The notes beneath the pieces were generated by a model. It saw only the letters and a list, made by a program, of their open reading frames with translations. It was not told where the DNA came from and did not search any database. From a virus, in the IMG/VR virus record IMGVR_UViG_3300002855_000001, positions 1 to 64,000 of that record: a stretch of 64,000 nucleotides of DNA. The stretch is one strand, 5' to 3'. Each line of letters begins with the position of its first letter. Positions within the stretch are counted from its first letter, which is position 1. A program made the translations under genes and the position numbers. Positions 16,582-54,087 of the stretch are shown here, piece by piece.

Positions 16582-17586
16582 GTGAGTGATATTAATAAAA
16601 ACATGCTACGTAGTATTGCTGATAAGCTTCCTCCAGTGGATGACGACAAATGGAGTCTAGTGAACAATGATTATCGCAGCTTGGTTGAAGAGTACATATC
16701 AGTACAGGCTCATAGTCCAAAAACTAAAGAGCAGTATAAGTCAGGCCTACGTCAGTTTGGTTATTACATATACAAGAACATGAATAATAAAAAATTGTAT
16801 AACATCACAAAAAGGGATTTTTTAAGATACATCAGTTATCTCAGAGACACTAGAAAAATGTCTTCTAGTGGAATTGCATTAAAGAAAGCTTGCGTTTCAA
16901 GTCTTTGTAACTATATTGAAAACGTAGTTGCTGAGGATGACAAAAACTACAAGACATTTAGAAATTTTACTCGTGGTTTACCTGCTATAGCTAAAAATCA
17001 TGTGTTCCAAAAAGTGAAAATTAGTAAAGATGACTACGATTTAATGATGCAAACTTTGCTAGATGATGAGAATTATCTTGGAGCTGCTTGGGTTGCTTTT
17101 GCTTTTAACGTGGGTGCACGTAGAGCAGAGATACCTCAATTTAAGTCTGAAATTGTTAACTATGCGATTCCAGAAGGACAAAGTTATGTTATGTCACACA
17201 TAGTTCGCTTGAAAGGCCGTGGTGAGGATGGCAAGCAAGAGCCTTACATGATCAATGAGGAAGCACTTAAGTATGTGAACCTATGGCTAGAAAAGCGTGG
17301 GTATGAACATGAGCATATATTTACCGTTCGATACAATGGTCAGATCAATCCAGTTTCTGAAACTTGGGCAAATGATTTTTGTAAAGAAACACTATCTAAC
17401 ATATTAGGTCGCAGAATCAATCCACACTTATTTAAAGCAAGCTGTGTGACTTATCTATTAGAAGTTAAGAAAATACCAATTGAGCTTGTATCTAAGTTTG
17501 TAGCACATCATGAGAACATTGCTACAACTATTGCACACTATGATTTACGTGATTTTGCTGAAGAGAAGAATAAGATATTTGGGTGA
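16582..17586 (+). CDS. tyrosine recombinase (XerD/phage-integrase family)
   Basis: GTG start with SD AAAGGAAGGA. N-terminal SAM-like core-binding region. Box I is GARRAEI; box II is HLFKASCVTYLL...AHHENIATTIAHY with a terminal Tyr. Confidence 0.8.
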   Translation: MSDINKNMLRSIADKLPPVDDDKWSLVNNDYRSLVEEYISVQAHSPKTKEQYKSGLRQFGYYIYKNMNNKKLYNITKRDFLRYISYLRDTRKMSSSGIALKKACVSSLCNYIENVVAEDDKNYKTFRNFTRGLPAIAKNHVFQKVKISKDDYDLMMQTLLDDENYLGAAWVAFAFNVGARRAEIPQFKSEIVNYAIPEGQSYVMSHIVRLKGRGEDGKQEPYMINEEALKYVNLWLEKRGYEHEHIFTVRYNGQINPVSETWANDFCKETLSNILGRRINPHLFKASCVTYLLEVKKIPIELVSKFVAHHENIATTIAHYDLRDFAEEKNKIFG

Positions 17587-17590
17587 TTAA

Positions 17591-18703
17591 TTGCTTAAAA
17601 TTGATGAGATTGGCCTATCTCTATTGGAGAATAAATGTGACAGAAACATTTACATAGACAAACATGGGTATCAATACGCTTTATCTGAAAGCAATTTAAA
17701 TGTAATAAAAAGAAGAAATAGCGTTCCTGCTCAATTCTTTCGGAACAATCCTTTTACGATTGAAAACATTAAAAATTATCTCAGTAGGAACTGTTCAACT
17801 GTAAAACTGATTTCAGATAGCGTAGAAACAGCAACTGAAGATATGGAGTTTGAATGCAATGCACATGGCATCTTTAAGAAAACTTGGAATGAAATCAAAA
17901 ATGGTGCTTATTGTACTATTTGTGGACGAACAAAAGGAAATGAAAATCGAAAGAGAAGCATTGATGAAGTCAAACAAGGATTTGAAAATAGAGGTTATTT
18001 ATTACTAACAGATACCTATATAGATAACGAAACCAAAATGCCTTACAAATGCTACAAGCATATTAAAGCAGAAACTCAATTCATTGCTTGGGGCGGAATT
18101 GTCAGTGGAAAAGGCTGCAAGCATTGTGCTAGAGAAAGTCGCATTAAAAAACAAACAAAGTCGCACAGCGTATTCCTTTCGGAAATAGAGAGTTTACATG
18201 GAAATAAATTGAGTGTCACAAGCAAATATGTCAATTCTAAAACTAAAGTCAAGGTTTTTTGCAATGATTGCAATAGTCAGTTTAGCTCAAAACCCAACCA
18301 TTTACTTGATGGACATTTGGGGTGTAATTGTAGACCTGTTTCATTGGGCGAAGAAAAAATTAGGGGTTATTTCGAAGAACAACAAATTCCATTTGAGCAA
18401 CAGTACAGATTTTCAGATTGTCGTAATAAGAAACCATTGCCTTTCGATTTTGCAGTTTTCGATGGGGATGGGAATTTGCGCTGTCTAATAGAATTTCAGG
18501 GCAAGCAACATTATGAAGGGACTACAACAAAATGGAGTTCTGATATTAATAAATCGATTAAGGCGTTTGAACAGCAACAAATAAACGACAATATAAAACG
18601 TAATTATTGTCAAAAGAAAAAAATTAAATTAGTTGAAATACCTTACTGGAAACTCAGTAACATTGAACAATTACTTTCCGAATTAATAAAAAACATAATA
18701 TAA
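17591..18703 (+). CDS. Zn-ribbon repeat protein with C-terminal PD-(D/E)XK nuclease-like domain (putative site-specific or homing endonuclease)
   Basis: Three C/H-x2-C...C-x2-C modules (CNAHG..CTICG, CYKH..CKHCA, CNDCN..CNC). The C-terminus PLPFDFAV...IEFQGKQH fits a D...E-x-K nuclease core. Confidence 0.5.
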   Translation: MLKIDEIGLSLLENKCDRNIYIDKHGYQYALSESNLNVIKRRNSVPAQFFRNNPFTIENIKNYLSRNCSTVKLISDSVETATEDMEFECNAHGIFKKTWNEIKNGAYCTICGRTKGNENRKRSIDEVKQGFENRGYLLLTDTYIDNETKMPYKCYKHIKAETQFIAWGGIVSGKGCKHCARESRIKKQTKSHSVFLSEIESLHGNKLSVTSKYVNSKTKVKVFCNDCNSQFSSKPNHLLDGHLGCNCRPVSLGEEKIRGYFEEQQIPFEQQYRFSDCRNKKPLPFDFAVFDGDGNLRCLIEFQGKQHYEGTTTKWSSDINKSIKAFEQQQINDNIKRNYCQKKKIKLVEIPYWKLSNIEQLLSELIKNII

Positions 18704-31503: not shown

Positions 31504-31560
31504 ATCCTTCCAATTGTGTGTTACACTAATATAAAGAATAAAATATAAAATTGGAAGGAT
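31504..31560 (+). promoter_or_regulatory. 12-bp perfect inverted repeat able to sequester the SD and start of the ankyrin gene
   Basis: ATCCTTCCAATT (31504-31515) and AATTGGAAGGAT (31549-31560). The right arm contains the SD GGAAGG and the first ATG. Confidence 0.5.
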
Positions 31561-31567
31561 GAATTAT

Positions 31568-32290
31568 ATGAGTTCAAAATTAAAGCATAAGGCACAACTG
31601 GCAATAGCTTTTCTATGTGGGGCGTTTCTCTTTTCTGCGGCAGGAGCTTACGCTGCAACAGAGATAATTGCAAAACAATCATCTTATAAAGTTAAAGTTG
31701 ATGGAATTGAACAAAAGCTATCCAACAAACCAGTTACTATTAATGGAAGTGCTTATCTGCCAGTTCGTGAAGTTGCTAGTATTACAGGCTATGACGTTAA
31801 ATTTGATGGTAAATCAGGCACTATTAATTTACTTGGAGAAGGCTACGTCGAATCTTCCGCTGAAAAAACAAGCAATCCAAACAAGGATGGAGTATATGTG
31901 AAAAACCTAAGCACTAAGTACAACAACGATAAAGATCAACTAGACGCTTCTCTGCTAAAGGAAGCTATCAAATCAGGAGAATTGAATGTAAATGCCCAAG
32001 ATCAAGACACAGGAGAAAGTTTATTTCATCTTGTGATCAAACAAAACAATTTTCCTGCTTATGAAGTAATTAAAGCAAATAAGATTAATCCCAGCCTGAA
32101 AGACAATGAAGGGTTGACACCTTTACATGTTGCAGTGATCGAGGAAAATAGCTTTTACTATGGTGAATTAAAAAATGAATTCAATGTCAAGCAACACAAG
32201 GATAACAGTGGAAAATATCCAATTGACTATGCAGGTGGAGTCTCTTCGACTTTTCATCGCTCGTTGTTACATGTAGATAAAGCTGAGTGA
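31568..32290 (+). CDS. secreted protein: signal peptide + Cu-amine-oxidase-N-like wall-binding domain + ankyrin repeats
   Basis: LAIAFLCGAFLFSAAGAYA signal peptide. VTINGSAYLPVREVASITGYDVKFDGKSGTINL matches the endolysin C-terminal repeats. GESLFHLVIKQNN and GLTPLHVAVIEEN are ankyrin-type. The track start 31559 abuts the SD, so ATG 31568 is preferred. Confidence 0.6.
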   Translation: MSSKLKHKAQLAIAFLCGAFLFSAAGAYAATEIIAKQSSYKVKVDGIEQKLSNKPVTINGSAYLPVREVASITGYDVKFDGKSGTINLLGEGYVESSAEKTSNPNKDGVYVKNLSTKYNNDKDQLDASLLKEAIKSGELNVNAQDQDTGESLFHLVIKQNNFPAYEVIKANKINPSLKDNEGLTPLHVAVIEENSFYYGELKNEFNVKQHKDNSGKYPIDYAGGVSSTFHRSLLHVDKAE

Positions 32291-32381
32291 TTGATCAAAA
32301 CAATAATTCAATTATTGACCACTTTTCACAAATAAGGTAGAATTGTGTAGATTTTACTTTATAAAACGAGGAGTGGTCTTT

Positions 32382-33014
32382 TTGGATAATTTAGAACTTG
32401 GCTCAGAAGAAATAAACAGCAATCCAGCATCGGTTAAAAAAACAAACTGGTTAAGAATCAGTGTTCGTTTTATTGCAGTTTTACTAATTTTAGGTTCAAT
32501 CTTTTTTGTGTACAACAAATTTCTATCAGAAGAAGCAAAAGTAAAAAGAGTAGTAGCCAAGTATGTAAAAGCAATTCAACGTGGAGAAAGTACTTATGAT
32601 TACAAGAAAAGTCTTTCCATGGACGATTTTATCGATATTATTGATTATAAATACATTCGAGTAGTATCCAAAGAGAAAAGAGAAGTTACTCTAACAGTTG
32701 ATAGAAAAATGTACGATAGCTATGTTAAATATGAAATAGGCTCTGCTAAGGATTTTGACACTTTTGAAGAATTTTTCGAACACGAAAGAAGTGAAGCAGC
32801 GAAGAGAGAAGCGCAAGAAAATACTAAGTATGAAGTTTTATACGAAACCGATTCCTCGTTCACTTATACTTGGGGGAGTACATATGACGAATATGAATTA
32901 CTTTATGACATGCAATTGACCAATGGTTTGGGCGGTTTAGTTTATAAAAAAGTGTACTTTACTATAGATAATGAAGAGCGTGACACCTTTAAGATTTCGA
33001 GCACATATTATTAA
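32382..33014 (+). CDS. membrane-anchored protein, paralog of 35551-36138
   Basis: One N-terminal TM helix (WLRISVRFIAVLLILGSIFFVY). Shares the motifs KYVKAIQRGES and VYFTIDNEE..FKIS with the paralog. TTG 32382 lies 8 nt after the SD GAGGAG (track start 32343). Confidence 0.55.
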   Translation: MDNLELGSEEINSNPASVKKTNWLRISVRFIAVLLILGSIFFVYNKFLSEEAKVKRVVAKYVKAIQRGESTYDYKKSLSMDDFIDIIDYKYIRVVSKEKREVTLTVDRKMYDSYVKYEIGSAKDFDTFEEFFEHERSEAAKREAQENTKYEVLYETDSSFTYTWGSTYDEYELLYDMQLTNGLGGLVYKKVYFTIDNEERDTFKISSTYY

Positions 33015-33057
33015 ATATCACTGAAGTATCATTATTAGGCAATTAAATATCAGCAAT

Positions 33058-33095
33058 AAAAAGAACTCATTCTGCATTGAATAGAGTTCTTTTTT
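33058..33095. terminator. bidirectional terminator between convergent genes
   Basis: A-run, AAGAACTC...GAGTTCTT stem, T-run. Lies between 32382-33014 (+) and 33147-33329 (-). Confidence 0.7.
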
Positions 33096-33146
33096 ATATT
33101 TACTTTTTTATCACTTTAATGAACTATTGATACTTTGTAAAAACTA

Positions 33147-33329
33147 TTATTTTTCATTTTTGGGAAGAACACCGATTTCTTTAAAGTAAAGATCAAAAGC
33201 GTTATCAAAAAGCCTAGATTTTGTTATCCCAGTTTTTTCGGAATACTCATCCAGTAATGTGTATAAATCATTTCGTAGTGTATTTGTGAATTGCACTCGG
33301 CTTTTAAGTTTTTTCTTGCTCATGTGCAT
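33147..33329 (-). CDS. ribbon-helix-helix (CopG/Arc-like) DNA-binding protein, candidate repressor
   Basis: Beta strand SRVQFTNTL followed by two helices (RNDLYTLLDEYSEKTG, TKSRLFDNAFDLYF). SD GGAGG. Divergent from 33518-34519. Confidence 0.55.
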   Translation of the reverse strand: MHMSKKKLKSRVQFTNTLRNDLYTLLDEYSEKTGITKSRLFDNAFDLYFKEIGVLPKNEK

Positions 33330-33360
33330 TAACCTCCATTAACTATAATTGACTTCATTT

Positions 33361-33389
33361 ATCATAACATAAAAACAAGGAATGGTAAA
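33361..33389 (-). promoter_or_regulatory. candidate sigma-A-type promoter for the RHH gene
   Basis: On the minus strand: -35 TTTACC (33384-33389), 17-nt spacer, -10 TATGAT (33361-33366). Confidence 0.4.
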
Positions 33390-33400
33390 ATATCAAAATA

Positions 33401-33460
33401 TCAAATGACTGTAATTATGTATAAATAAAAATAATTATTTATACTTGAAGTCAAATGACT
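33401..33460. repeat. operator-like repeats in the divergent control region
   Basis: Direct repeats TCAAATGACT at 33401-33410 and 33451-33460 flank the palindrome GTATAAATAA-N6-TTATTTATAC (33419-33444). Confidence 0.6.
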
Positions 33461-33473
33461 CCAATGATATAAT
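33445..33473 (+). promoter_or_regulatory. candidate sigma-A-type promoter for 33518-34519
   Basis: -35 TTGAAG (33445-33450), 17-nt spacer containing the second TCAAATGACT copy, TG-extended -10 TATAAT (33468-33473). Confidence 0.55.
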
Positions 33474-33517
33474 CGTCTCAAGAAACAATAACATTTGTAT
33501 TATAAGGAGAGATGATT

Positions 33518-34519
33518 ATGTTGCAACAAGAACAATTGTTAGAATCAGTGGAACTGAGAAACAAAATGATCCAAAACACTAGTGTACTAGATAAGGTGAA
33601 AATCTTATCAATGCTTCCTAACGGTGAGCATTTGACAACAATCATGATTGCCCACTATTACGAAGTGAGCGAAGAAGTTATTAATATGGTTGTAAAACGA
33701 CACAGAGACGAATTGGAACTAGATGGGATGGAAGTTGCGTCAGGGGAAAGACTAGTGTACATAAAGTACACTTGTGAAATGAAGTCAAATAAGGCACGAC
33801 AAATGATCATATTCAACCGCAGATGTGTCTTACGTATTGGAATGTTACTACGTGATAGTAAAGTTGCAAAGCAGCTCAGAACCTATCTTCTTAACATTGA
33901 AGAACAAGCGACTCAACAACAAAAATCAAAAGCAACAAGAGGTAGTCGATGGGATGGTAAAGACTTGATTCTATATGATCGAATTGTTGTGGGTATTAAC
34001 GAAGGAAAAACTCTCAGTCAAATCTGTGAAGAGGTAGCTCCAACAATTAACGAAACCTCAACAGCTTGTAGAAACAGATACACACAAAAAATTAAGACAA
34101 TGATTTCTAATAAAGAGTTAGTTACTAAGATAGAGAGTAATCGAGGAAGCCATCTTCGTGTAGTCGAAACGAAAATAGAGAAAAATGATACACCTGCTGA
34201 TGCTCGTGGTATCGAAATACCAACTTGGGCTGAAACTTATCTTAATCATGTTGTCCAGATGAACATTGAAACCAATGAGTTAATCAAAAAAGCAAATGAT
34301 GATCTAAAAGAATTAACTGAAAGTAAGATAAGCAATTTAGAGGAGTTATTACAACAAAAAACCGAAGAACTCAAACTTGTAAAATCTCGTAATAGAAAGT
34401 TGGCTGAAGAGCTTAAACAAACAAGGGCAGTAATTGCTTCTGCTGTAAAAATTGGTGTAAACGAAACTATCCAACAAACTTTCAAAATGAGCAAAAATGG
34501 GAACTTGGAACGATTGTGA
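33518..34519 (+). CDS. DNA-binding regulator: anti-repressor/ORF6N-like N-terminus + RsfA-type Myb-like domain + coiled coil
   Basis: HLTTIMIAHYYEVSEEVINMVVKRHRDEL resembles ORF6N/Ant-type domains. RWDGKDLILYDRIVVGINEGKTLSQICEEVA...TSTACRNRY resembles the RsfA Myb-like repeat. Second ATG 33518 is preferred over 33512. Confidence 0.5.
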   Translation: MLQQEQLLESVELRNKMIQNTSVLDKVKILSMLPNGEHLTTIMIAHYYEVSEEVINMVVKRHRDELELDGMEVASGERLVYIKYTCEMKSNKARQMIIFNRRCVLRIGMLLRDSKVAKQLRTYLLNIEEQATQQQKSKATRGSRWDGKDLILYDRIVVGINEGKTLSQICEEVAPTINETSTACRNRYTQKIKTMISNKELVTKIESNRGSHLRVVETKIEKNDTPADARGIEIPTWAETYLNHVVQMNIETNELIKKANDDLKELTESKISNLEELLQQKTEELKLVKSRNRKLAEELKQTRAVIASAVKIGVNETIQQTFKMSKNGNLERL

Positions 34520-34608
34520 ACTGTCGAACGATTTACATATGAGGCAATGTCTCAAGCGGTAACTGATCATTAATTCTCAAAATCAAAGAAAGTTGAGGGA
34601 TATGTATC

Positions 34609-35022
34609 ATGAATAGTAACGTACATCTTCAGCAAGTTTATGAATTAAATCAGCAGTTTGTCAGTTCTAATAAAAATTTCAAATGGGATTTTATTGAACA
34701 AGTTCTAGCTATATTGCCTAAAATTTCGGAAGATGTTGAGACTTCAACAATGCTCGTTAAGCCAATTTATGTGTATTATTTCTTTAATTCGGAGGGAGAG
34801 TGTTTATTTGAACTTACTGATGATGAAGAGGTTGCGCAGCAAAGCGGTGAAGAATATGAAGTCGCAAGTTTAGAGCAATTGAATGAGAATCTTGGTAATG
34901 GAAATGATGATGTTTATCAAGGGATACTGTTCACGTCTGACGGTTTATGTGAATACATTGAAGACGTTGTATATTTTAATGGCTGCACAAAGATTACTAA
35001 GTGTGAGTATAAACCTATTTAA
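34609..35022 (+). CDS. small strongly acidic hypothetical protein
   Basis: SD GAGGGA. 137 aa with Asp/Glu-rich stretches (TDDEEVAQQSGEEYEVASLEQLNENLGNGNDD). Confidence 0.65.
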   Translation: MNSNVHLQQVYELNQQFVSSNKNFKWDFIEQVLAILPKISEDVETSTMLVKPIYVYYFFNSEGECLFELTDDEEVAQQSGEEYEVASLEQLNENLGNGNDDVYQGILFTSDGLCEYIEDVVYFNGCTKITKCEYKPI

Positions 35023-35026
35023 CCTT

Positions 35027-35061
35027 AAAGCTAGCAAGAGCTAATTTCTTGCTAGCTTTTT
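35027..35061 (+). terminator. intrinsic terminator
   Basis: Perfect 12-bp stem AAAGCTAGCAAG/CTTGCTAGCTTT followed by a T run. Confidence 0.75.
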
Positions 35062-35144
35062 CAAAATAAAGTAAACTAGTCAAAACGAATTAATACTAAA
35101 TGTGTTCTAATCAATAAAAAATGTTAGCAGGGAGATGTTGACTA

Positions 35145-35372
35145 ATGTGTAACGAGGATAAGACAGACACATCAACACTACAAGATAAACTCAAAGTAGC
35201 TAATGATAAAGTTGATGCACGTATTGATGACATTTGGGCTGAAGCTGAAGAAAATCTTCGGAAGCTTGCAAACAAAAACACTAAAAAGAATGAACAAGGG
35301 CAAACAGTTTTATCTTCAGATAGTCCATATCGTAAGGAAGAAGGATGGGAATATTCAACTAAAGATGAATAA
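35145..35372 (+). CDS. small hydrophilic hypothetical protein (75 aa)
   Basis: SD GGGAG about 10 nt upstream of the ATG. Normal residue composition, unlike the overlapping minus-strand 152-aa ORF. Confidence 0.4.
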   Translation: MCNEDKTDTSTLQDKLKVANDKVDARIDDIWAEAEENLRKLANKNTKKNEQGQTVLSSDSPYRKEEGWEYSTKDE

Positions 35373-35461
35373 CGTATATCAAATCCTGTGAACTTCCTAT
35401 TGATTACAATGACAAATAGAAACTGGGGTAAACATGAATAGATAAGGCTATTTGCATTTGA

Positions 35462-35544
35462 TTTAGATAATATTTTACACTTCCTTAAAAATTTACAAGG
35501 AAAACCTCTCAATATGTCGAATTGATATGAGACTAAGGGAGGAG
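35462..35544 (+). repeat. conserved promoter/leader element, copy A (upstream of membrane-protein paralog)
   Basis: The first 18 nt, TTTAGATAATATTTTACA, are identical to copy B, and roughly three-quarters of the whole element is identical by eye. Contains TAGATA-16 nt-TAAAAA, anti-SD CCTCTC (35505-35510) and SD AAGGGAGG. Confidence 0.6.
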
Positions 35545-35550
35545 AACAAG

Positions 35551-36138
35551 ATGTCGAGTGCATTTTCAAAAACGGTTAACAGAAAAGGTATTCTTTTGGG
35601 GTTGGTGGGGTTTGTTATATTGGTGCTGGCTGTTTGTTTGTATTTCATAAACTCTGCTTCTTTCGAACAGCAGTCTAAAAAACTTGTGCATGGCTATTTA
35701 AAAGCAGTTCAAAACAAAGATACAGAAAGAGCAAAATCAATGATAGATGAATTTGTTGACGACTTGAGGGATGTTAATAAATTCAAGTTCAAAGAAGCAT
35801 TGGATTATCAAGTAGTTGACAAGACTAATGTCATTAATGAGGAATTATATAGATTTTATAAAGATAACAATAGCTCGACTGTAAAATACTATGATAACTT
35901 TGAACAATTTTATCAAAGTGAAACTGATAAGATCAAAGAGATGGCAAAAATCAATCCGAACTTCAAAGTTATTCGTGACGAAGAAAACGAATTTGTTTAC
36001 ACCAATGGAAAACCTTATGAAGAAATAGCAATTGTTTTTGAGGTGGGCTTTCTAGAGGGAGTTGGAGATATAGTATATAGAGATGTTTATTTTAACGTTG
36101 ATGACAAAGATGGGCTTAAAATCACATTGATTTATTAA
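35551..36138 (+). CDS. membrane-anchored protein, paralog of 32382-33014
   Basis: TM helix GILLGLVGFVILVLAVCLYFI. Motifs GYLKAVQNKDTERAK and VYFNVDDKDGLKITLIY parallel the paralog. The track start 35527 lies upstream of the SD AAGGGAGGAG, so ATG 35551 is preferred. Confidence 0.55.
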   Translation: MSSAFSKTVNRKGILLGLVGFVILVLAVCLYFINSASFEQQSKKLVHGYLKAVQNKDTERAKSMIDEFVDDLRDVNKFKFKEALDYQVVDKTNVINEELYRFYKDNNSSTVKYYDNFEQFYQSETDKIKEMAKINPNFKVIRDEENEFVYTNGKPYEEIAIVFEVGFLEGVGDIVYRDVYFNVDDKDGLKITLIY

Positions 36139-36360
36139 TTAGCTTTAAGTTTTGTAAAGAATGAAGTTATTGACACAGAAACACGATACCTATCATCTGA
36201 TCAATTAAGTCCTAACGAACAGAAACAATTTGAAATTATTTCAAAATATACGAATGAAGTATCTAACTTCAGAGTTGAGATATCAGACTATATGTTTCAA
36301 TAGAATAATTCTCTGAAATGCTTGAATCTAAGTATATCTACTTATATAACATAATGAAAT

Positions 36361-36440
36361 TTTAGATAATATTTTACATTTTTCTAAAATTAACAAGGAA
36401 TTCCTCTTTTTGTGTCGAAAGTAGTAGGACTAAAGGGAGG
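36361..36440 (+). repeat. conserved promoter/leader element, copy B (upstream of NYN gene)
   Basis: Collinear with copy A: TAGATA-16 nt-TAAAAT, ACAAGGAA, anti-SD CCTCTT (36403-36408), TGTCGAA, GACTAAAGGGAGG. Confidence 0.6.
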
Positions 36441-36453
36441 TATTTATCAAAAA

Positions 36454-37221
36454 ATGAAAAATGTAGCAATTTACTGGGATTTTGACAACATTCAACTTAG
36501 TATTCAGAGGCATTATGGACAATCTGCTGAAAACATAGCTAAGTTGATTCAGAAAATCGAAGAAATCTATTCTAATGACTCAATTCGAATTCATAAGGCT
36601 TTTGCTGATTTTGAAAAAATCACTAAAACTCAAACGGATTTACAAAAGAAGAAAGTAACCCCTATCCATGTATTTAGTAGCAACTCTGGTAGCGAATCTA
36701 GAAAAAATGCCAGCGACATCGAGTTATGTTTAGATGTTCTAGAAACTGCTCTGACTAACGAAGATATCAACGAATTTGTAATTGTATCTGCTGACAAAGA
36801 TATGATCCCTCTATTATCAAAGCTAAGGTATCATGGTAAAAGAACATTCTTAATTTACTTGGATAAAACTATTGCTGAAGACAAATTGCTAATCAATTTT
36901 GCTAACCAATCAAGCTCGATTGAAGAGTTAATTGAGATGAAGCTGCCTGACCCAAGTGAATTAACAAGAGAAAAAATAGAGGCTTATTCAGAAGAAATAG
37001 TGAATATTGCAACTGCATTTTTTGACAGAAATAAATTTAAGCCTACCATCTTCTTAGGCAAGACAGTTTTTGTTAAAGAGATTACTGACAAAATAGGTCT
37101 ACCAGTGGAGATTGTCGAGCAAATTATTACTCATTGTATAGACACAGATAAACTAACTTTAGTTGAATTTGATGGTGGTAAGATCAAATACGAATTAGCA
37201 AAAAAATTAACAGTGGTTTAA
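36454..37221 (+). CDS. NYN-domain (LabA/DUF88-like) putative ribonuclease
   Basis: VAIYWDFDNI, IRIHKAFADF, ASDIELCLDVLE and FVIVSADKDMIPLLSKLRYHGKR match the NYN/PIN-like acidic motif order. ATG 36454 follows the SD AAAGGGAGG (track start GTG 36412 lies upstream of the SD). Confidence 0.65.
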   Translation: MKNVAIYWDFDNIQLSIQRHYGQSAENIAKLIQKIEEIYSNDSIRIHKAFADFEKITKTQTDLQKKKVTPIHVFSSNSGSESRKNASDIELCLDVLETALTNEDINEFVIVSADKDMIPLLSKLRYHGKRTFLIYLDKTIAEDKLLINFANQSSSIEELIEMKLPDPSELTREKIEAYSEEIVNIATAFFDRNKFKPTIFLGKTVFVKEITDKIGLPVEIVEQIITHCIDTDKLTLVEFDGGKIKYELAKKLTVV

Positions 37222-47760: not shown

Positions 47761-47804
47761 ACACCCTAAACACTTAAATTTTATTGTGTTTAGGGTGTTT
47801 TTTT
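47761..47804 (+). terminator. strong terminator ending the plus-strand late region
   Basis: Perfect 13-bp stem ACACCCTAAACAC/GTGTTTAGGGTGT followed by a T run. Confidence 0.8.
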
Positions 47805-47904
47805 ACCCTTTTTTTCTCTAAAACGTCATCCTTGAACAATTCGTACTCCCCCTGTAAAACAGCCAATCAACCTCCCTCAAGGAAAATATTCATATTTCGT
47901 CTTG

Positions 47905-48252
47905 TCATCCTAGAGTCCAATAAGTTTGCTGGGTATCACTGAAATAACTTTTTGTTCCATCGGTATAATAAATAGTTAACTCATTCGTATCAGGATTGAA
48001 AGTGATCTGCTTAAGGTAGTTATTCATGTCCTGTTCCACGTGAAATGAATTATAAAGTTCTGGTCTATTTAGTTGAATATCCTTATGATCGTTAATTAAG
48101 CTAACAATAAGTCCTTCTTCTATCACTTTGCGAACGCATTTTCTGTGATTGTGGTAGGTAGAGCAAACATATTTAGGTTTATTTCTTTCTCGAATACCAC
48201 GAAAATTTCCGCCACAAGACAAACATTTAATCTTCTTGCTAAAAATATACAA
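47905..48252 (-). pseudogene. orphan C-terminal fragment of a large serine recombinase (zinc beta-ribbon region only)
   Basis: KIKCLSCGGNFRG....KYVCSTYHNHRKCVRKVIEEGL matches the recombinase zinc-ribbon domain. No resolvase catalytic domain lies upstream, because the rep-like gene stop is only 17 nt away. TTG start with SD AAGGATG. Confidence 0.55.
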
Positions 48253-48268
48253 TACAACACATCCTTTT

Positions 48269-49561
48269 TTAGAAAGGTAGTTCTGACTGAATATTTGGTG
48301 AGCTGCTATTGTTACCTAGCTTTATGGCTAATTCTTTATACTCTTCTATCATCAATGCTTGTTCACATTCCAACCTGTGTTTATTGAAAGTCAGTTCTTC
48401 ATAGTGTTCTGCAATGTACTTTGTTACGTTTTCATCTTGTTTGTTAGCTACTTGACTTAGTACTTGCTCCTTTAGTTCAGAATAGCCGATGTTGGAATTT
48501 ATTTTAGTAAATTGGTTTTCAAGCTTATATACAATCTCATTGCAGTATATACTTAATTGTAAGTCGCTGAACATGCCCTTGGTTGACTCCCTCTCATGGC
48601 CATCGTGCATTTTCGTATGCTTATGAGGGGGTAATAAAACATAAGTTTGATTGGAATTGAAGTCATATTCTAGGTCTATTTCAGGTGATTTTAACTCAGT
48701 TTCGACTAAAAATTCTTGTGAAATATGCTCATAAGCCATGTTTAAAGCAGTTTTATATGTGTATCCAGCCAACTGATCATCTTTCATCTTAAGATGTTTT
48801 TTAGATTTAATGATCTGAAAGCAAGTATTTTTTGCAATTATGTATAAAGAGTCTTTGGTGAGCATAGGATGTTTAACATACTTGAAAGCCTGAGATACTT
48901 TCACCCAAATAGTTTTCAATTTATTACCGAGTTCATTTAGAAACATTTTATTAATAACTTTTGGAACAAATTGAATGAAATTGGGGCGTTCTACTTTAGG
49001 ATGTATATCTTTAATTTCTTTAGGTAAATAATTAGGTAAGTTATAGGTAGAAGGAATATCGTCGCTCAAATTCCTTGCTACACAAAGCTTTTCACTGTTT
49101 TCAGGTTTCTCATCAAGGTTCTCATTATAATTCTCATCTGTCGTAAAATTGATAAACTCATTAAACCTTTGAAAGTATGGATGGCTTTTGAAAAAATAAA
49201 CAGCGCAACCTAGGCCATTATGCTTAACTGACTCAAAGTTTTTCTTAACAAGCACACCTTCATCAAGTAGCGTCTTGAGGAGTCTATATATAGTCTTTTC
49301 CGAAATTCCATGTTTTGCTGCTGTCTTGCTTGCTGAAGCATAGAAATAACCTTTTTCAGTTGAGAGAAAACATACAAAATCAAATGCTTTTTGTGTACCT
49401 TCTTTCATCCTGTACCATGAGCATCCAAATGTTTTTTTTATCTCATCCAATAAAGTGCCCTTGATTTGATTGAACTCTTTTCTTTTGGATTTAGTAATGT
49501 ATGCAGGTGTACTAATTATGTAATCTAATTGGTCTTGTGTTAACTTATTCGTACTTTTCAT
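48269..49561 (-). CDS. rep-like protein with winged-helix domain (putative replication initiator)
   Basis: ASKTAAKHGISEKTIYRLLKTLLDEGVLVKK is a wHTH motif. Large protein next to the ORF-free AT-rich region and the par genes. ATG 49561 (MKSTNKL) is preferred over the track TTG 49663. No clear SD. Confidence 0.4.
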   Translation of the reverse strand: MKSTNKLTQDQLDYIISTPAYITKSKRKEFNQIKGTLLDEIKKTFGCSWYRMKEGTQKAFDFVCFLSTEKGYFYASASKTAAKHGISEKTIYRLLKTLLDEGVLVKKNFESVKHNGLGCAVYFFKSHPYFQRFNEFINFTTDENYNENLDEKPENSEKLCVARNLSDDIPSTYNLPNYLPKEIKDIHPKVERPNFIQFVPKVINKMFLNELGNKLKTIWVKVSQAFKYVKHPMLTKDSLYIIAKNTCFQIIKSKKHLKMKDDQLAGYTYKTALNMAYEHISQEFLVETELKSPEIDLEYDFNSNQTYVLLPPHKHTKMHDGHERESTKGMFSDLQLSIYCNEIVYKLENQFTKINSNIGYSELKEQVLSQVANKQDENVTKYIAEHYEELTFNKHRLECEQALMIEEYKELAIKLGNNSSSPNIQSELPF

Positions 49562-49622
49562 GTTAAGTTGACAGAGTGAACAAATTACCAATTTTATATA
49601 TAACAAATAAGCCTTTCTATTC

Positions 49623-49651
49623 TTTACGAAAAAAAGGTTAAGTGTTACAAT
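49623..49651 (+). promoter_or_regulatory. candidate promoter for an antisense RNA
   Basis: -35 TTTACG (49623-49628), 17-nt spacer, TG-extended -10 TACAAT (49646-49651). It is on the strand opposite to all neighbouring genes. Confidence 0.45.
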
Positions 49652-49657
49652 AGAATC

Positions 49658-49784
49658 AATCAATAAAGTTTTTTCAATACTAAAGAGAGTGCGAATCTCA
49701 GTAGTATCTGTATCAATTCTATAAGTACTGGTTACTGGTAATTCTCTTAGATCCTCTTGCAGTGCGAATGCAAGGGGATTTTTT
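49658..49784 (+). ncRNA. candidate countertranscript antisense to the rep-gene leader (about 125 nt)
   Basis: No plus-strand gene lies nearby. The predicted RNA holds a GAGA/TCTC hairpin (49685-49699) and a CCTCTTGCA/TGCAAGGGG terminator hairpin (49753-49777, then A+T6). Both have the loop GTGCGAA. Confidence 0.4.
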
Positions 49785-49798
49785 CTGTCTTCCTCCTT

Positions 49799-50188
49799 TT
49801 ATAATAGTGATTTTAATGGTGTTTTCAATCTATTTGATTTGATCTGCTGAAGCTGTACAATGCGTATTTGTTTTTTGAATGGTGAAAAATCATAACCTAC
49901 ATTTTTCTTACCCTTCTTTATAACCTCTAAATAGTTTTTCTCACGCATGTCAGTTAATATCATATGGAGCTGCCTTTCTGATAGACCTATGATTTGACCT
50001 AACTCTTTTACTGATGGCATTACTCTTCCTTCTTTATTAATGGATTCAATTAAACTGAATACAGTCCATTCATTGGGCTTCATTCCAATAAGAAATGCTG
50101 TAGTTATAAATTGATATGGAACAGTAATTTGATCTGAGTCATTTTTCAGTTCAGATATTATTGAGTCTAAAGCAAATTCTGTAGCCAT
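49799..50188 (-). CDS. winged-helix DNA-binding protein (replication-organiser N-terminal-like)
   Basis: WTVFSLIESINKEGRVMPSVKELGQIIGLSERQLHMILTDMREKNYLEV is a wHTH motif. First gene of the minus-strand rep-like operon. Confidence 0.45.
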   Translation of the reverse strand: MATEFALDSIISELKNDSDQITVPYQFITTAFLIGMKPNEWTVFSLIESINKEGRVMPSVKELGQIIGLSERQLHMILTDMREKNYLEVIKKGKKNVGYDFSPFKKQIRIVQLQQIKSNRLKTPLKSLL

Positions 50189-51305
50189 TAAGTAATCATC
50201 CTCTCTAGCAGCTTTAATTTAATCCTATACGATTTTCTTTTCAAAGTAAACATATATGATGAATTTTTCTCTTTACTTGGCGATTTTTTTATAGTATAAT
50301 ATTCAAATTTTGCTTTGGTATACGTATGTAAAAAACTAATGCTAATAGTTTTAGTATTAGTTTTTTTGTTCGTTTAAGTAGGCCTTTTCAATGATCTAAT
50401 TGTGTATCTACTTAGAATCAACCGCTGAATTAATTATATGCTCTTAATCTTTAACGTAATCAATTCTTTAATCCATCTTATAAGCATATCTGCTTAAGAA
50501 AACCTTTCAAAAAAACTATTCCTATTAGTGCATGAACTTAATTCCGTATTCCATTAAATATTAGTATACAAATTTGATTAGAATTAAAACTATGTTTACA
50601 CATTCACTTCTAATTAAGTAATAGTAAACAGATATTACTATATAAATGTTTATCTATGTTTAAGCACTTCTAAAATGATAACTATATACACGTTCTAAAT
50701 TAACATTAAATGTGAACACACAATCAAAAATCTAAACTTCTATGTAATTATGGATGTTTGTAAAATGATAAAAGTAATTAAAGATGAATTACAAACTATA
50801 AACAAAATACATTACTATTATACAACGATAATTGATTACACAATTTGAATTGAAAAAGCTTAACTAATCATAAACATGTATATTTAAATAAATATATATA
50901 GATGTTAAAACAAAATTTGAATTTAAACTTGATACGAACATACAATTAATTTAGAGGTCGTAAACACAAACAAAATAAAACTAATAAGCGAATACGAAAT
51001 AACAATCAAATCACAACACTATTTCAAAACAGAAAACTAAAAAGATTTTTCAAACATATACAAAATCTGATCCACTTATAAGTATGTATCGAAATTGCAA
51101 AACGTTTTGATTGCTTGAAACAAAATTATAGATAGGTATAATTCAGAATACGTAATAAGTATCCAAAACTACTACATACACAAATATGTAATAGTGTACT
51201 ATTTTAATTATGTATACAAAAAAGTGTACTTTTTTATTGCATGATAAAATTATCATGTGTGGTTGACAAAGATTGGATATGCCTATAAGATAGTAGATAT
51301 ATATT
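50189..51305. other. 1.1-kb ORF-free, very AT-rich region; candidate plasmid-type origin and control region
   Basis: No ORF of 60 aa or more in any frame. The top strand is G-poor from about 50560 to 51060. Holds ATACGAA-type repeats (50932-50947, 50992-51007), the palindrome CAAAACGTTTTG (51098-51109) and AGTGTACT direct repeats (51193-51200, 51223-51230). Confidence 0.4.
51240..51291 (+). promoter_or_regulatory. parA promoter with adjacent palindromic operator
   Basis: CATGATAA-AA-TTATCATG (51240-51257), -35 TTGACA (51263-51268), -10 TATAAG/TAAGAT (51284-51291). Confidence 0.5.
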
Positions 51306-51326
51306 ATGTGTAGAGGGAGTGTTTTT

Positions 51327-52235
51327 GTGGCAATAACGATAACTGTAGGAATTCAGAAGGGCGGTTGTGGAAAAACGCTTACTTCTGGGATACTCGCACA
51401 CCTTCTCAGTCAACGTGGATACAAAGTTCTTGCTGTAGATATGGACTCACAAGGAAATTTAACTCAATTACTTACTGAGGTAGAAGATATATATGTTTTT
51501 CGTGGAAGAACAATTATGGATGCAGTAAAAAATGGATTATCTGAGGATCATATAGTGGTAGTAGACGATAATCTTCATATCATACCTTCCAATGATTTAC
51601 TAGCTTTGTATTCAAGCTATATTGCAACGGCTAAAGCAAAGAATAGTACCAATTTTGATTTTAACATGACATTGAGCTACGTTTTAGCCCCTGTTCAAGA
51701 TAGATATGATTTTATTATTATAGATACACCACCAGCTCTATCAGAACAAACATTGAACTCAATGGCTGCTAGTGATTATATTATCACAATGTTTGAAGCT
51801 AGTAACTTTTGTCTAGCAGCAATCCCAAGATATTTTGAAACTTACATCAGATTAAAAGAAAAGGTCAACCCAAATCTTAAGATGCTAGGTGTTGTTAGAA
51901 CTTTAATCGATGTTCGTAGAGTTGATAATAACATGTTGATCAACACTATTGATGAAATGATTGAAGGGGTTTGTTTTAGAAACATCATCAACAGAACAGC
52001 GGCAGTAGGAAGGATAGGTTTGAGAGGGTTTAAGAATAATGATGAACTAAAGAAAGCGCTAGAGCAGCACGAAGTACTTTTAGATGAAATACTAGGAAGA
52101 ATAGTTGAAGAAGATGATTACTTTGGAAAAATTGATAATACGATTGAGGATTACTTAGTGAAGGACTTTGAACGACTAGAGCAACTGGAGAAACAGATGA
52201 ACACAAGAGTGGAGGGAGAGGTTGTAGATGGCTAA
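51327..52235 (+). CDS. parA: ParA/Soj-family partition ATPase (short, type Ib-like)
   Basis: Deviant Walker A IQKGGCGKT, LAVDMDSQGNLT, Walker B FIIIDTPP. GTG 51327 lies 7 nt after the SD GAGGGAG (track start ATG 51306). Confidence 0.9.
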   Translation: MAITITVGIQKGGCGKTLTSGILAHLLSQRGYKVLAVDMDSQGNLTQLLTEVEDIYVFRGRTIMDAVKNGLSEDHIVVVDDNLHIIPSNDLLALYSSYIATAKAKNSTNFDFNMTLSYVLAPVQDRYDFIIIDTPPALSEQTLNSMAASDYIITMFEASNFCLAAIPRYFETYIRLKEKVNPNLKMLGVVRTLIDVRRVDNNMLINTIDEMIEGVCFRNIINRTAAVGRIGLRGFKNNDELKKALEQHEVLLDEILGRIVEEDDYFGKIDNTIEDYLVKDFERLEQLEKQMNTRVEGEVVDG

Positions 52236-52839
52236 GCCTAAAACACTGGAAGAAAAATTGGCCGAAAAACTTAAAAGTAGAGATGCTATAACCCCTCATA
52301 ATCGTCTCATAGATAATAGCAGGACAGAGCCAATAAATTCACAGCCTATAGTTTCCTCTGATGAAGAAATCATAGCCAATCAAACCAAAGGAACATCTTC
52401 GCCTGAATATATCGAAGAAAAAAAGAATCAACAGGCAGATGTTAAACTTAATGAAATTAAAAACAATAGTCCTGTTGAAACACATGTAAAGATTCAGAAC
52501 AATGGAGTAACAAAGGAGCAACCATCAGAAAGCGCAATAACGCCAGTTAATCAAGAATTAGTCACTGTTAAAAAAAGAAGAGTTCCGACAACTTTTAAGA
52601 AGGTTCAACCTAATAAATCAGATCGGTACACACCAAAAACTTTTAGAGTGGACGTAGAAGTTTTAGAAATGTTTGAAAAGTACATGGATATAAAACATGG
52701 CGACTATCAAAAGATTATTAATTTGTCGCTGATAAACGCTATGCTGAGCGATGAATTCATATCTCAAAGAATACTCGAACAAAGTGTGGAAGAATATAAT
52801 CGATTAATTGAGTTAGAAGAAGAATATCAGGAAATGTAG
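52228..52839 (+). CDS. centromere-binding partner, ParG-like (disordered N-terminus + C-terminal ribbon-helix-helix)
   Basis: The start overlaps the parA stop. The C-terminus KTFRVDVEVLEMFEKYMD...YQKIINLSLINAML fits a strand-helix-helix fold. Confidence 0.5.
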   Translation: MAKPKTLEEKLAEKLKSRDAITPHNRLIDNSRTEPINSQPIVSSDEEIIANQTKGTSSPEYIEEKKNQQADVKLNEIKNNSPVETHVKIQNNGVTKEQPSESAITPVNQELVTVKKRRVPTTFKKVQPNKSDRYTPKTFRVDVEVLEMFEKYMDIKHGDYQKIINLSLINAMLSDEFISQRILEQSVEEYNRLIELEEEYQEM

Positions 52840-52865
52840 AACTCTTTTATAAGAGTTCTTTTTTT
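52838..52865 (+). terminator. intrinsic terminator after the par operon
   Basis: AGAACTCTT/AAGAGTTCT 9-bp stem, loop TTAT, then a run of 6 T. Confidence 0.7.
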
Positions 52866-52866
52866 A

Positions 52867-52926
52867 TAGGTAAACCTAGTAAACTAGGTAAACCTACTGT
52901 ATAATATAGGTAATCTAGTAAACCTA
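52867..52926. repeat. centromere/operator-like repeat array
   Basis: Five TAG(G)TAA(A/T)C(C) units: TAGGTAAACCTAGTAAAC (52867-52884), TAGGTAAACC (52885-52894) and TAGGTAATCTAGTAAACC (52907-52924). A TATAAT at 52900-52905 lies between the blocks. Confidence 0.6.
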
Positions 52927-52933
52927 AAAGGAA

Positions 52934-53821
52934 GTGATGCCAGTGTCAAAAGAAACGAAATCTTATAAGGTAAGTTCTGATTTTAAGGCAAAGCTTGAAA
53001 ATTTATTTCTTGAAAGCGGATTTGAAACACAAGAGGCATTTTTGGAGCATGTTGCATTGCTCTACGAAATGCAACAACTAAAGAATGGGATGGCATCAGG
53101 ATACCACAAGCAATTAGATGAATTAGAGTATCATTCAAAAAGAAATGTAGAATTGTTCTTAGGAATGATACAAACAGAAGCAGCTACGCATATGCAAATG
53201 ACACAACAGTACGAGGAGACAATTAATCAACGTGCTGAAACAATCATAACACAAGAAAGAGAAATAACTAGACTTGAAAAAGAGTTGTCGCAAGTACTAG
53301 AGAAGGTGGAACAAATCAACAAGGAAAACGAATCATTAAATAAACAGATTGAGCAACAACAGGAAATTTCTAAAAAAGACAATCTACTTGTTGATGAATA
53401 TAGAGCAAAATTGGATACGTTAACTGGATTAGTTAACGAATATAAAGAGGCGGCTAGTGAAAATAAAGAATTAAAATCAAAGCTTAATGAGATCGATATG
53501 ATTCAAAAAGAACTCACTAAAGAAATTGATGAGTTGAATTCTAAATTAGTAGAAAAAGATATCACACTAAAGACTCACATTGATGACATGGAGTCTAAAA
53601 TGAAACAAGATCAAGAAAGACTCTCAGAAAGAAAAGATATCGAAAAAGAAAGAGAGTTACTGAAACTCCGCACCGAATACCAAGAAAAGTTAGAACAAAG
53701 CCAAACTGAGGCAACAGCCAAGATACGTGAGCTTTATGAGCAAATAGAAAAACTGCGACAGCAGCATGAAAATGAAATAGAGTTACTGAAACAGAATATG
53801 AACAAAAGAGAAGAGAAGTGA
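52934..53821 (+). CDS. RHH-like N-terminus + about 250-aa coiled coil (KfrA-like architecture)
   Basis: KSYKVSSDFKAKLENLFLESGFETQEAFLEHVALLYEM fits strand-helix-helix. The rest is Glu/Lys/Gln heptad-rich. The start is ambiguous (GTG 52934, ATG 52937 or GTG 52943). Confidence 0.4.
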   Translation: MMPVSKETKSYKVSSDFKAKLENLFLESGFETQEAFLEHVALLYEMQQLKNGMASGYHKQLDELEYHSKRNVELFLGMIQTEAATHMQMTQQYEETINQRAETIITQEREITRLEKELSQVLEKVEQINKENESLNKQIEQQQEISKKDNLLVDEYRAKLDTLTGLVNEYKEAASENKELKSKLNEIDMIQKELTKEIDELNSKLVEKDITLKTHIDDMESKMKQDQERLSERKDIEKERELLKLRTEYQEKLEQSQTEATAKIRELYEQIEKLRQQHENEIELLKQNMNKREEK

Positions 53822-54001
53822 TGAAAATTCACATCTTTTTTTGATATGGAGGCAGTAAGTTCATCATTGAGTATTATACTATTAAAAACAATATATAAGT
53901 AAACCAATAGGAATAGTGGGACATATGTACAAAACACGACTTTTATGCAGTAGTGCATTAAAGCGTTAATATAATAAAGTATATGCATATTGATTAATGT
54001 C

Positions 54002-54079
54002 CGTTCAACCCAATGTGGTTGCATAACCTAAAACCCTATGATAAACAAAGGATTTTATGCAACCACTCTGGGTGAAACG
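54002..54079. repeat. long imperfect inverted repeat (25-nt arms, 21 paired) between convergent genes
   Basis: CGTTCAACCCAATGTGGTTGCATAA (54002-54026) pairs with TTATGCAACCACTCTGGGTGAAACG (54055-54079). TTATGCA/TGCAT motifs also occur at 53943-53949, 53954-53958 and 53983-53989. Confidence 0.6.
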
Positions 54080-54087
54080 TACAATTA

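Follow-up and report, generated by a model that had tools for sequence, protein, structure and literature searches.

A plasmid-type replication and partition block with a predicted copy-control element in a large tailed-phage genome

The stretch of DNA analyzed in this work (the window) comprises the 64,000 nucleotides at positions 1 to 64,000 of the IMG/VR virus record IMGVR_UViG_3300002855_000001, has a GC content of 34% and carries, between positions 47905 and 53821, a block of genes and regulatory elements organized as a plasmid-type maintenance region. The proteins encoded in this block were found only once in the public protein collection, on a JGI contig of 180,502 bp, indicating that the window represents about one third of a large phage-like genome of uncultured source, whose remaining 116 kb lie outside the view of this analysis. 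The block consists of two divergent units flanking a 1.1-kb spacer. The leftward unit comprises, in this order, a DnaD_N-like gene encoding a winged helix-turn-helix (wHTH) protein, a 237-nt leader, the initiator-like gene rep and an open reading frame (ORF) for a zinc-ribbon protein, while the rightward unit contains parA, an overlapping ORF for a 203-aa protein, a terminator, an array of 9-bp repeats and a gene for a ribbon-helix-helix (RHH)-like and coiled-coil protein. Three layers are recognized in this arrangement, namely an initiator, an antisense copy control and a type Ib partition system, to which the coiled-coil protein is added as an accessory. All the features listed in a preliminary description of this DNA were recovered, either exactly where it placed them or a few bases away.

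The replication unit and its leader

The gene denoted here as rep (48269–49561, minus strand) encodes a wHTH initiator-like protein of 430 residues, whose start agrees with the public gene call P0004. Domain searches with this protein yielded weak helix-turn-helix (HTH) matches and the PHROG families phrog_1835, 428 and 678, all related to replication initiation. Its relatives are plasmid proteins: homologs are present in 59 plasmids of PLSDB, 55 of them from Priestia, while among 50,697 phage records the sole match was gp004 of the Brevibacillus phage Sundance (NC_028749), with 35% identity. Homologs were also found on a 9.8-kb plasmid of Priestia megaterium and on the 8.2-kb plasmid pPM8 of Bacillus badius, and in both cases the homolog is apparently the sole Rep candidate among the annotated genes. 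Among species-representative genomes, the protein was detected only in Priestia endophytica, with three to five paralogs per strain located on plasmid-size contigs, a distribution typical of compatible plasmids of a multi-replicon family. A family of theta replicons, ori100/repM100, has been recorded in P. megaterium, in the compatible multi-plasmid strain QM B1551; the likeness concerns distribution alone, in that the Rep homologs described here are likewise found on Priestia plasmids, several per strain. The N-terminal ~280 residues of the window Rep are common to the plasmid proteins, whereas its C-terminal ~150 residues are an extra region specific to the phage versions. The large wHTH rep-like protein of the preliminary description therefore belongs to a family found otherwise in Sundance and in about 60 plasmids from Bacillaceae.

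The first gene of the rep operon (49799–50188, minus strand) encodes a 129-aa protein that matches Pfam DnaD_N with an E-value of 2e-4, under the cut-off, as well as PHROG families of O-like and DnaD-like proteins. It is 32% identical to Sundance gp006 and 78% identical to its counterpart in the relative L038. As judged from its sequence, it could act as an initiator accessory protein or as a repressor. Profile searches thus placed the rep-like proteins among PHROG families of replication initiators, O-like and DnaD-like proteins. The last gene of the operon (47905–48252, minus strand) encodes a protein of 115 aa. Its first ~50 residues correspond to Pfam Zn_ribbon_recom (5.3e-8, 33.6 bits versus a cut-off of 25.3), and its match to the integrase family phrog_95 is confined to residues 2–49. 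It is a stand-alone protein, with the zinc ribbon of a serine recombinase and no catalytic domain. This ORF had been regarded as an orphan; however, it is kept downstream of rep in the relatives as a 117-aa gene (77% identity), so it is a conserved gene and not a decayed remnant. For this reason, and because no significant alignment was obtained with the SPbeta/SprA-type serine recombinase of the Bacillus velezensis element plaBV1, an origin as a remnant of an SprA-type integrase was ruled out. Candidate roles suggested by its sequence are the binding of origin DNA or an accessory function in recombination.

Between the DnaD_N-like gene and rep lies a structured, untranslated leader of 237 nt (49562–49798, minus strand), which was analyzed with RNAalifold and by alignment with four relatives and Sundance. 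It is strongly conserved even though the Rep proteins of the relatives in the alignment are 59–66% identical (35–66% across all the relatives compared). Two hairpins of the leader share the loop UUCGCAC, and it also contains a candidate attenuator hairpin as well as a long-range helix; RNAalifold placed a covarying hairpin at ~49600–49645, followed by TTATTTGTT, which is non-canonical as a terminator, and the long-range helix around the rep start. The rep gene itself has no Shine-Dalgarno (SD) sequence. At the 5' end of the leader there is an invariant AAAAGGAGGAAGACAG stretch that resembles an SD sequence and is followed by no start codon.

On the opposite strand, the leader is predicted to contain a gene for a countertranscript RNA (ctRNA; 49623–49790, plus strand), made of a promoter, two stem-loops and a T6 tail, as deduced from promoter and terminator scans and from the alignment. 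The promoter, TTTACG-17-TGnTACAAT, spans positions 49623–49651 and the predicted RNA start lies near 49659; in the relatives both hexamers are invariant (with a -10 box that reads TACAAT or TAAAAT, that is, TAMAAT) and the spacer between them is variable. The two stem-loops, at 49677–49707 and 49750–49780, share the same 7-nt loop. Because a T6 run is found 3' of the second hairpin on the plus (antisense) strand only, both elements together are taken as the intrinsic terminator of the antisense RNA. The hairpins include 22 pairs, with 96.6% of the cells of the alignment paired and four pairs exhibiting compensatory changes, which point to selection; when the partners were slid as a control, pairing fell to 30–51%. 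Furthermore, helix 2 is 100% paired in the antisense orientation, and the G-U positions found there become C-A mismatches on the sense strand. This strand-specific pairing points to the antisense RNA as the structure under selection. The Sundance leader keeps hairpin 1, with a largely different stem sequence, and a AAAGGCTTATTTG box near rep.

These features predict a ctRNA of ~130 nt (49659–49790) that would serve as a plasmid-type copy-control device, and this predicted element is an additional plasmid hallmark, absent from the preliminary description. Searches for the leader elsewhere were negative: no family of Rfam was matched (E-values up to 1), a pattern scan of genome contigs yielded no further homologs, and a gapped pattern gave nothing in viral contigs and eight loci in metagenome contigs, seven of them due to chance and the other one already known. 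In Sundance, the annotated gene gp005 (2820–3122 of NC_028749) overlies the leader homolog, hairpin 1 included, and may be a spurious gene call. In B. badius pPM8, a strong terminator-like hairpin with a 17-bp stem and a T-run is present on the sense strand at 5617–5657, ~30 nt upstream of the Rep homolog, which suggests that attenuation in the leader is family-wide for this initiator.

Countertranscript control within the rep leader is the layout of Inc18 plasmids (RNAIII of pIP501 and pSM19035) and of pT181 (RNAI/II). The window is similar to them in having a predicted constitutive antisense promoter in the rep leader, two stem-loops and an intrinsic terminator, a candidate attenuator hairpin immediately ahead of rep and, upstream, a gene for a small DNA-binding protein, as are CopR and CopS. 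In contrast, there is no sequence or Rfam similarity, the attenuator of the window is not a clear terminator and, judged by Pfam matches alone, the window Rep does not belong to the RepR/RepS/RepC homology group. By analogy, the control element would work as in the Inc18/pT181 family without being a member of it.

The partition cassette and the non-coding elements

The rightward unit starts with parA (51327–52235, plus strand), which encodes a short, type Ib ParA with no N-terminal HTH. Its probable start is the GTG at 51327, located behind the ribosome-binding site AGAGGGAG, rather than the ATG at 51306. From this GTG the protein has ~302 residues, with the Walker A sequence KGGCGKT at residues 11–17, compared with 309 for the ORF starting at the ATG and 299–300 for the gene calls in the relatives. 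It matches Pfam AAA_31 (1.2e-34) and CbiA (1.9e-18), both of which begin at residue 11 of the 309-aa ORF, equivalent to residue 4 of the 302-aa form, and span the protein from there on, as well as phrog_164 (3.4e-52). The best PDB match is the delta protein of pSM19035 (2oze, 5.8e-26, residues 2–262), followed by chromosomal and plasmid Soj/ParA proteins, and the best NCBIfam model is PrgP of pCF10, with a score well under the equivalog cut-off. The protein is 53% identical to Sundance gp007, and counterparts with 44–47% identity occur on 1134 plasmids of PLSDB, the majority of which come from Bacillales and Lactobacillales. The assignment as a ParA ATPase is firm, and the short ParA with a deviant Walker A motif that had been recognized from the letters alone is borne out by both the AAA_31 and the delta matches.

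The gene that follows (52228–52839, plus strand) overlaps parA by 8 nt and encodes a 203-aa protein considered here a candidate partition adaptor on the basis of an RHH profile match and of synteny, since it comes after parA in every relative compared, a pairing that is kept in five relatives. It displays a conserved basic N-terminal helix (residues 7–18), a disordered linker of ~120 residues, a C-terminal strand-helix-helix (KTFRVDV...) and an extra helix. Its alignment with its few relatives and with the downstream neighbors of ParA in Sundance and in the IMG/VR elements L010 and L012 showed the conserved basic N-terminus, then a linker that is variable and of low complexity and, at the C-terminus, a conserved strand (K-T-F-R/W-V/I) that precedes two helices. 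Alone, the 203-aa protein gave no match in the family databases, and a full-library phmmer search with its C-terminal domain retrieved five proteins only. When the family profile was compared with 177,635 PDB sequences, two matches were obtained, both corresponding to the omega repressor (2bnw and 1irq) and both over the RHH region, with weak E-values of 0.31–0.47. A single-sequence AlphaFold2 (AF2) model shows helix-helix after the KTFRVDV segment, with low confidence. Of the small overlapping protein with a C-terminal RHH that had been described, therefore, the overlap is established and the RHH rests on the weak omega match, so the fold assignment is tentative. An intrinsic terminator (52838–52859, plus strand), found by a terminator scan and by sequence reading, closes the parA-adaptor operon.

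Upstream of parA, an alignment, a promoter scan and motif positions define a control region (51194–51292, plus strand) with GTGTAC at 51194, GTATAC at 51212, GTGTAC at 51224, a perfect palindrome, CATGATAAAATTATCATG, at 51240–51257, and a promoter with the -35 box TTGACA (51263) and the -10 box TAAGAT. Over the ~130 bp that precede parA, four relatives show almost no variation, and the sequence diverges further upstream. This region is a candidate operator or centromere for the RHH adaptor.

Taken as a pair, ParA and the 203-aa protein are probably a delta/omega-like (type Ib) system, as read from their sequences. In the delta/omega system of pSM19035, an Inc18 plasmid of Streptococcus pyogenes, ParA also has ~300 residues and no N-terminal HTH, short repeats are present in the promoter regions and, by analogy with what is seen here, partition and copy-control elements share one maintenance region. 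However, omega has 71 residues, versus 203 in the window adaptor with its ~120-aa disordered linker and extra C-terminal helix. Omega binds WATCACW heptads, whereas the repeats of the window are GTGTAC plus a palindrome, or 9-bp TAGGTAAAC units.

These 9-bp units form an array downstream of the operon terminator (52867–52925, plus strand), where five copies of TAG(G)TAA(A/T)C are found in 60 bp, three before and two after a TATAAT -10 box; the whole window contains 14 matches to this pattern, including these five. The same 3+2 layout occurs in the relatives L008 and L041 with the unit changed to GTTAAC, and in L041, where these units surround the -10 box, the protein encoded by the third gene of the rightward unit is 67% identical. 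Conversely, L006 and L007 lack both the array and the third gene. Because the array co-occurs and co-varies with the third gene, it is most simply, and probably, the operator of that downstream gene, and a role as the centromere of the adaptor is made unlikely. Hence, the repeat array pointed out in the preliminary description is present, but it tracks the third protein and not the ParG-like adaptor.

The third gene (52943, or 52934, to 53821, plus strand) encodes a protein of ~292 residues. An AF2 model built on a 23-sequence alignment (pLDDT 85.4) shows a short N-terminal coil, two helices and one helix of 235 residues, and the protein is described from this model as an N-terminal strand-helix-helix, RHH-like region followed by a coiled-coil helix of ~235 residues. 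Its profile gave only coiled-coil matches in the PDB. The family has 33 members, found in plasmid-like and phage contexts of Paenibacillus and Brevibacillus, among them a syntenic phage, a mobilisable plasmid-like contig with a relaxase, and a position beside an RPA-type initiator in Brevibacillus halotolerans. It is thus a maintenance-associated accessory protein, not universal and not a part of the core partition pair.

The spacer between the divergent operons (50189–51326) has a length of 1.1 kb and a GC content of 23.8%, and it is the probable location of the replication origin. Its AT-richness and lack of ORFs had been correctly noted, apart from one minus-strand ORF of 59 aa (at a threshold of at least 40 aa) at its right edge. 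Conservation is limited to ~110 bp on the left and ~150 bp on the right, adjoining the flanking genes. Within a conserved island, upstream of the rep operon, a 22-nt box, TTGAATATTATACTATAAAAAA, is found at 50285–50306 on the minus strand, and a second copy lies after the third gene, at 53867–53888 on the plus strand. The box (TTGARTATTATACTATWAAAAA) has exactly two matches in the 64 kb, versus 0.03 expected. The second copy points rightwards, where no plus-strand gene follows. The box could be a promoter or operator common to both ends of the block, or a small-RNA promoter. A further conserved non-coding element, GACATATGTACAAAACACGACTTT...TAAAGCGTTAA, occupies positions 53919–53975, between the partition cassette and a convergent resolvase gene. 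Irrespective of the intervening genes, the window, L006, L007 and L041 all retain this element, which is a candidate for a second centromere or for another protein-binding site. Just 3' of it, at 53998–54083, two arms of 29 nt, 83% complementary and separated by 28 nt, form a large imperfect inverted repeat, for which Rfam gave only Glutamine-II at chance level (E 0.98).

Relatives of the block and the genomic slot it occupies

A cultured counterpart of the block is found in Sundance, whose genes gp004–gp009 have the same order and orientation: an HTH/Rep-like protein (35%), a DnaD-like protein, a spacer of ~0.9 kb, ParA (53%), an overlapping adaptor and a further regulator. The Sundance version differs in that it lies at the physical left end of the genome, beside the terminal repeat of 323 bp, with a gene for a XerD-like recombinase after it; its third gene is unrelated to that of the RHH-like/coiled-coil protein, and there is no similarity at the nucleotide level. 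In the report on Sundance, ParA was listed only as a host-type or virulence-type factor, and the phage was treated as possibly integrating, its temperateness being deduced from an integrase elsewhere in the genome. The parA cassette is kept in Sundance, L006–L008 and L041, and the metagenomic relatives present the endolysin, Zn-ribbon, Rep and DnaD_N genes on one side and the ParA, adaptor, resolvase and polymerase genes on the other. A megablast search with the block against the phage and plasmid collections gave no nucleotide-level match.

A second informative case is the plasmid unnamed1 of Paenibacillus sp. JNUCC32 (NZ_CP062261.1), a complete circular record of 62,871 bp that corresponds to a whole tailed-phage genome and has no annotated integrase. 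Directly after its lysis genes come FtsK/SpoIIIE and replication-relaxation genes, and then a wHTH Rep, ParA and a small RHH protein. The wHTH protein aligns with the window Rep with an hhalign probability of 95.9% (E 5e-9), the ParA proteins are 46% identical and the small protein after ParA carries its RHH at the C-terminus, as is proposed for the adaptor of the window. However, this 63-kb genome is of the myovirus type and of higher GC, has Rep and ParA on the same strand, and lacks a DnaD_N-like gene, an RHH/coiled-coil gene and a recognizable ctRNA leader.

As for the setting of the block in its own genome, a long late region on the plus strand (354–47755) contains an exonuclease, a head protease, the large terminase, the portal, a tape-measure protein of 2023 aa, tail genes and an amidase endolysin, so that the tailed-phage morphogenesis and lysis set is complete (protease, terminase, portal, tape measure and endolysin). 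A GC-rich hairpin with a T7 run (47762–47808), recognized by sequence reading and a terminator scan, closes this late (lysis) operon at its convergent junction with the minus-strand rep operon. On the 3' side of the block lies a minus-strand module for replication and nucleotide metabolism that includes the resolvase, a sigma factor, DHFR and ThyA, together with a Pol III alpha of 1352 aa that shares 52% identity with YorL of SPbeta. The phage is a large, tailed one and its host a low-GC Gram-positive bacterium. The large terminase (3680–5515) has its best match in TerL of plaBV1, with 51% identity, while its best match among the 50,697 phage records has 31% identity over 39% of the length; without a close phage relative for the terminase, the structural module appears poorly represented among sequenced phages. 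In the tail region, a moron-like stretch (31559–37221) contains a Cu_amine_oxidN1 and ankyrin-repeat protein (31559–32290), an NYN-domain nuclease-like protein (36412–37221), several ORFs without a family and a minus-strand ORF (35111–35569).

The comparison with SPbeta-like phages bears on how the block came to lie there. In plaBV1 (NZ_CP097468.1), a serine recombinase gene separates the late genes from the RecU-type resolvase; in the window this slot is taken up by the block, which suggests that the lineage swapped integration for episomal maintenance. The record of plaBV1 is a 122,487-bp SPbeta-like phage genome with the arbitrium genes AimR/AimP, deposited as a circular plasmid; it encodes the large serine recombinase and neither ParA nor Rep, and is probably not a plasmid but a prophage, either excised or misassigned. 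Besides TerL, the window shares the exonuclease, tape-measure, ThyA and DHFR genes with plaBV1, and the YorL-type Pol III alpha and the structural-module recombinase (64%) with SPbeta-like phages, whereas it has no serine integrase or arbitrium genes and no nucleotide similarity to deposited phages. Within the group formed by SPbeta, E3, Perkons, the Tyroviruses and Sundance, the Tyroviruses also carry plasmid-type genes, for ParM and an RHH protein, while the window has ParA instead. The Tyroviruses have been proposed to be plasmid prophages.

The only intact recombinase noted in the window is a tyrosine recombinase of the tail module (region 16582–18703), which is placed, with an ORF for an HNH homing-type endonuclease directly after it (17591–18703), just before the tape-measure gene. 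It is 64–67% identical to those of SPbeta, phi3T, E3 and Perkons, and its use as a lifestyle marker was ruled out, since it occurs throughout the lineage, integrating SPbeta phages included, and carries no information on lifestyle. The claim that there is no integrase holds for the 64-kb window, where none was found besides this lineage-wide structural-module recombinase, but it is limited to that part of the 180.5-kb contig.

Lifestyle of the phage and significance of the block

All these observations can be integrated if the block serves to maintain a plasmid prophage during lysogeny. The relationship between ParA and delta, the plasmid family to which Rep belongs, the synteny with Sundance, the homologous cassette of JNUCC32 and the ctRNA element all support the plasmid-type maintenance block that had been proposed from the letters alone. 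Since a full plasmid kit is found where relatives keep their integration genes, we consider that the phage probably persists as a free plasmid rather than integrated.

The mechanism envisaged from the anatomy of the block and its homologies would be as follows. From a promoter region in the leftmost part of the AT-rich spacer, the DnaD_N-like gene, the leader with rep, and the Zn-ribbon gene would be transcribed, and Rep would fire an origin that probably lies in the spacer. The antisense RNA, produced constitutively from the promoter within the leader, would limit the supply of Rep: the loops of the ctRNA may base-pair with their complements in the nascent rep leader, favoring an attenuator or a translation-blocking fold just upstream of the SD-less rep start, with the result of a negative-feedback control of copy number as in Inc18 or pT181 plasmids. 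A second promoter would transcribe parA and the overlapping adaptor gene. The C-terminal RHH dimer of the adaptor would bind the repeats and palindrome of the parA promoter, the 53919–53975 element, or both, and its basic N-terminal helix might stimulate the ParA ATPase, as omega does for delta and ParG for ParF. In this way, low-copy phage plasmids would take up positions over the nucleoid, and each daughter cell would inherit them. The optional RHH/coiled-coil protein would bind its own 9-bp array, thus regulating itself, and may bridge or pair DNA. In evolutionary terms, the lineage would have exchanged a serine integrase unit for episomal maintenance in the same slot.

Several points weigh against this interpretation. 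The physical state of the prophage is deduced from sequence anatomy and homology, and just 64 kb of the 180.5 kb were read. Rep has no match to a Pfam Rep family, and its role as an initiator is drawn from its distribution rather than from a characterized homolog. In the 1.1-kb spacer, k-mer families with mismatches never rose above shuffled controls, so that iterons were not detected, and no DnaA boxes were present. The ctRNA is based on four or five related sequences. As to the RHH proteins, the omega match of the adaptor falls short of significance, Foldseek searches found nothing significant with the adaptor model and no significant match with that of the third protein (the top ones being RHH folds), and hhalign gave a probability of 0.25% for a relationship between the two RHH candidates. 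Finally, Sundance was obtained as a plaque-forming isolate, no lysogens of it have been reported, and it encodes, besides the block, two further tyrosine recombinases, one of them annotated as an integrase, which means that an integrase could lie outside the window.

This last point leads to a different explanation, namely that the phage is an integrating temperate phage, or integrative and episomal at once, with its integrase and attP in the unseen 116 kb. The rep/par block would then have only a transient role, for example in stabilizing the circularized genome ahead of its integration or once it has been excised, or else in a carrier state. Such a possibility is suggested by the same block in Sundance, with an adjoining XerD-like recombinase and a separate "integrase", by the combination of integration and plasmid stages proposed in the Tyrovirus paper for related phages with both partition genes and a set of three tyrosine recombinases, and by the size of the visible part. 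However, the slot of the SPbeta-like integrase is taken by the block, ctRNA copy control and a complete partition cassette serve to maintain a replicon at steady state, and JNUCC32 provides an example of such a cassette on a free circular phage genome without an annotated integrase, all of which makes this explanation rather unlikely. We give still less credit to an essentially lytic phage in which Rep and the DnaD_N-like protein would recognize a lytic origin, and ParA and the adaptor would position genomes or interfere with the host. The block does adjoin the lytic replication module (resolvase and Pol III alpha), the PHROG matches of Rep include phage O-like initiators, and Sundance forms plaques; but antisense negative copy control would be counter-productive for runaway lytic replication, the relatives of Rep are plasmid proteins with Sundance as their single representative among the phage records, and ParA-RHH cassettes of this type are overwhelmingly plasmid-borne.

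The least probable of the explanations is that the block is passenger DNA, a captured plasmid fragment with no function for the phage. It would account for the drop in GC down to 24% in the spacer, for the two switches in gene orientation and for a third gene that is present in some relatives and absent in others. Nevertheless, all the ORFs are intact, gene order and regulatory DNA are conserved, the cultured phage included, in spite of the divergence of Rep, and the compensatory changes in the leader point to selection. The persistence of the phage as a plasmid prophage therefore continues to be the interpretation that we favor. A more far-reaching version, to which we lend only tentative credence and which we regard as somewhat less likely than its opposite, is that the block represents a new replicon family, defined by the wHTH initiator, its DnaD_N-like partner and the two-hairpin ctRNA, common to the multi-plasmid complement of Priestia and to phages of the SPbeta supergroup, where it replaced the serine-integrase unit; in it, the RHH/coiled-coil protein with its co-evolving array would be a second, ATPase-independent factor for DNA pairing or segregation.

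Phage-plasmids with ParA/RHH partition are an already known kind of element, and what is newly seen here is the control element of the replicon, the predicted ctRNA. Phage-plasmids are well documented in enterobacteria and poorly charted in Bacillota, and taken with Sundance and the Paenibacillus element, the block suggests that large Bacillales phages that lysogenize as plasmids make up an unrecognized group. The findings also offer a functional annotation for ~60 plasmid genes labeled as transcriptional regulators, which are probably replication initiators, and the initiator with its predicted ctRNA makes up a compact replicon of ~2.5 kb that might serve as the backbone of a low-copy vector for Bacillales. 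In addition, the comparison with SPbeta presents the integration unit and the plasmid maintenance unit as interchangeable cassettes for one genomic slot; if true, a temperate phage would here have passed from integrative to episomal lysogeny through the exchange of a module, a clean natural case of such a switch.

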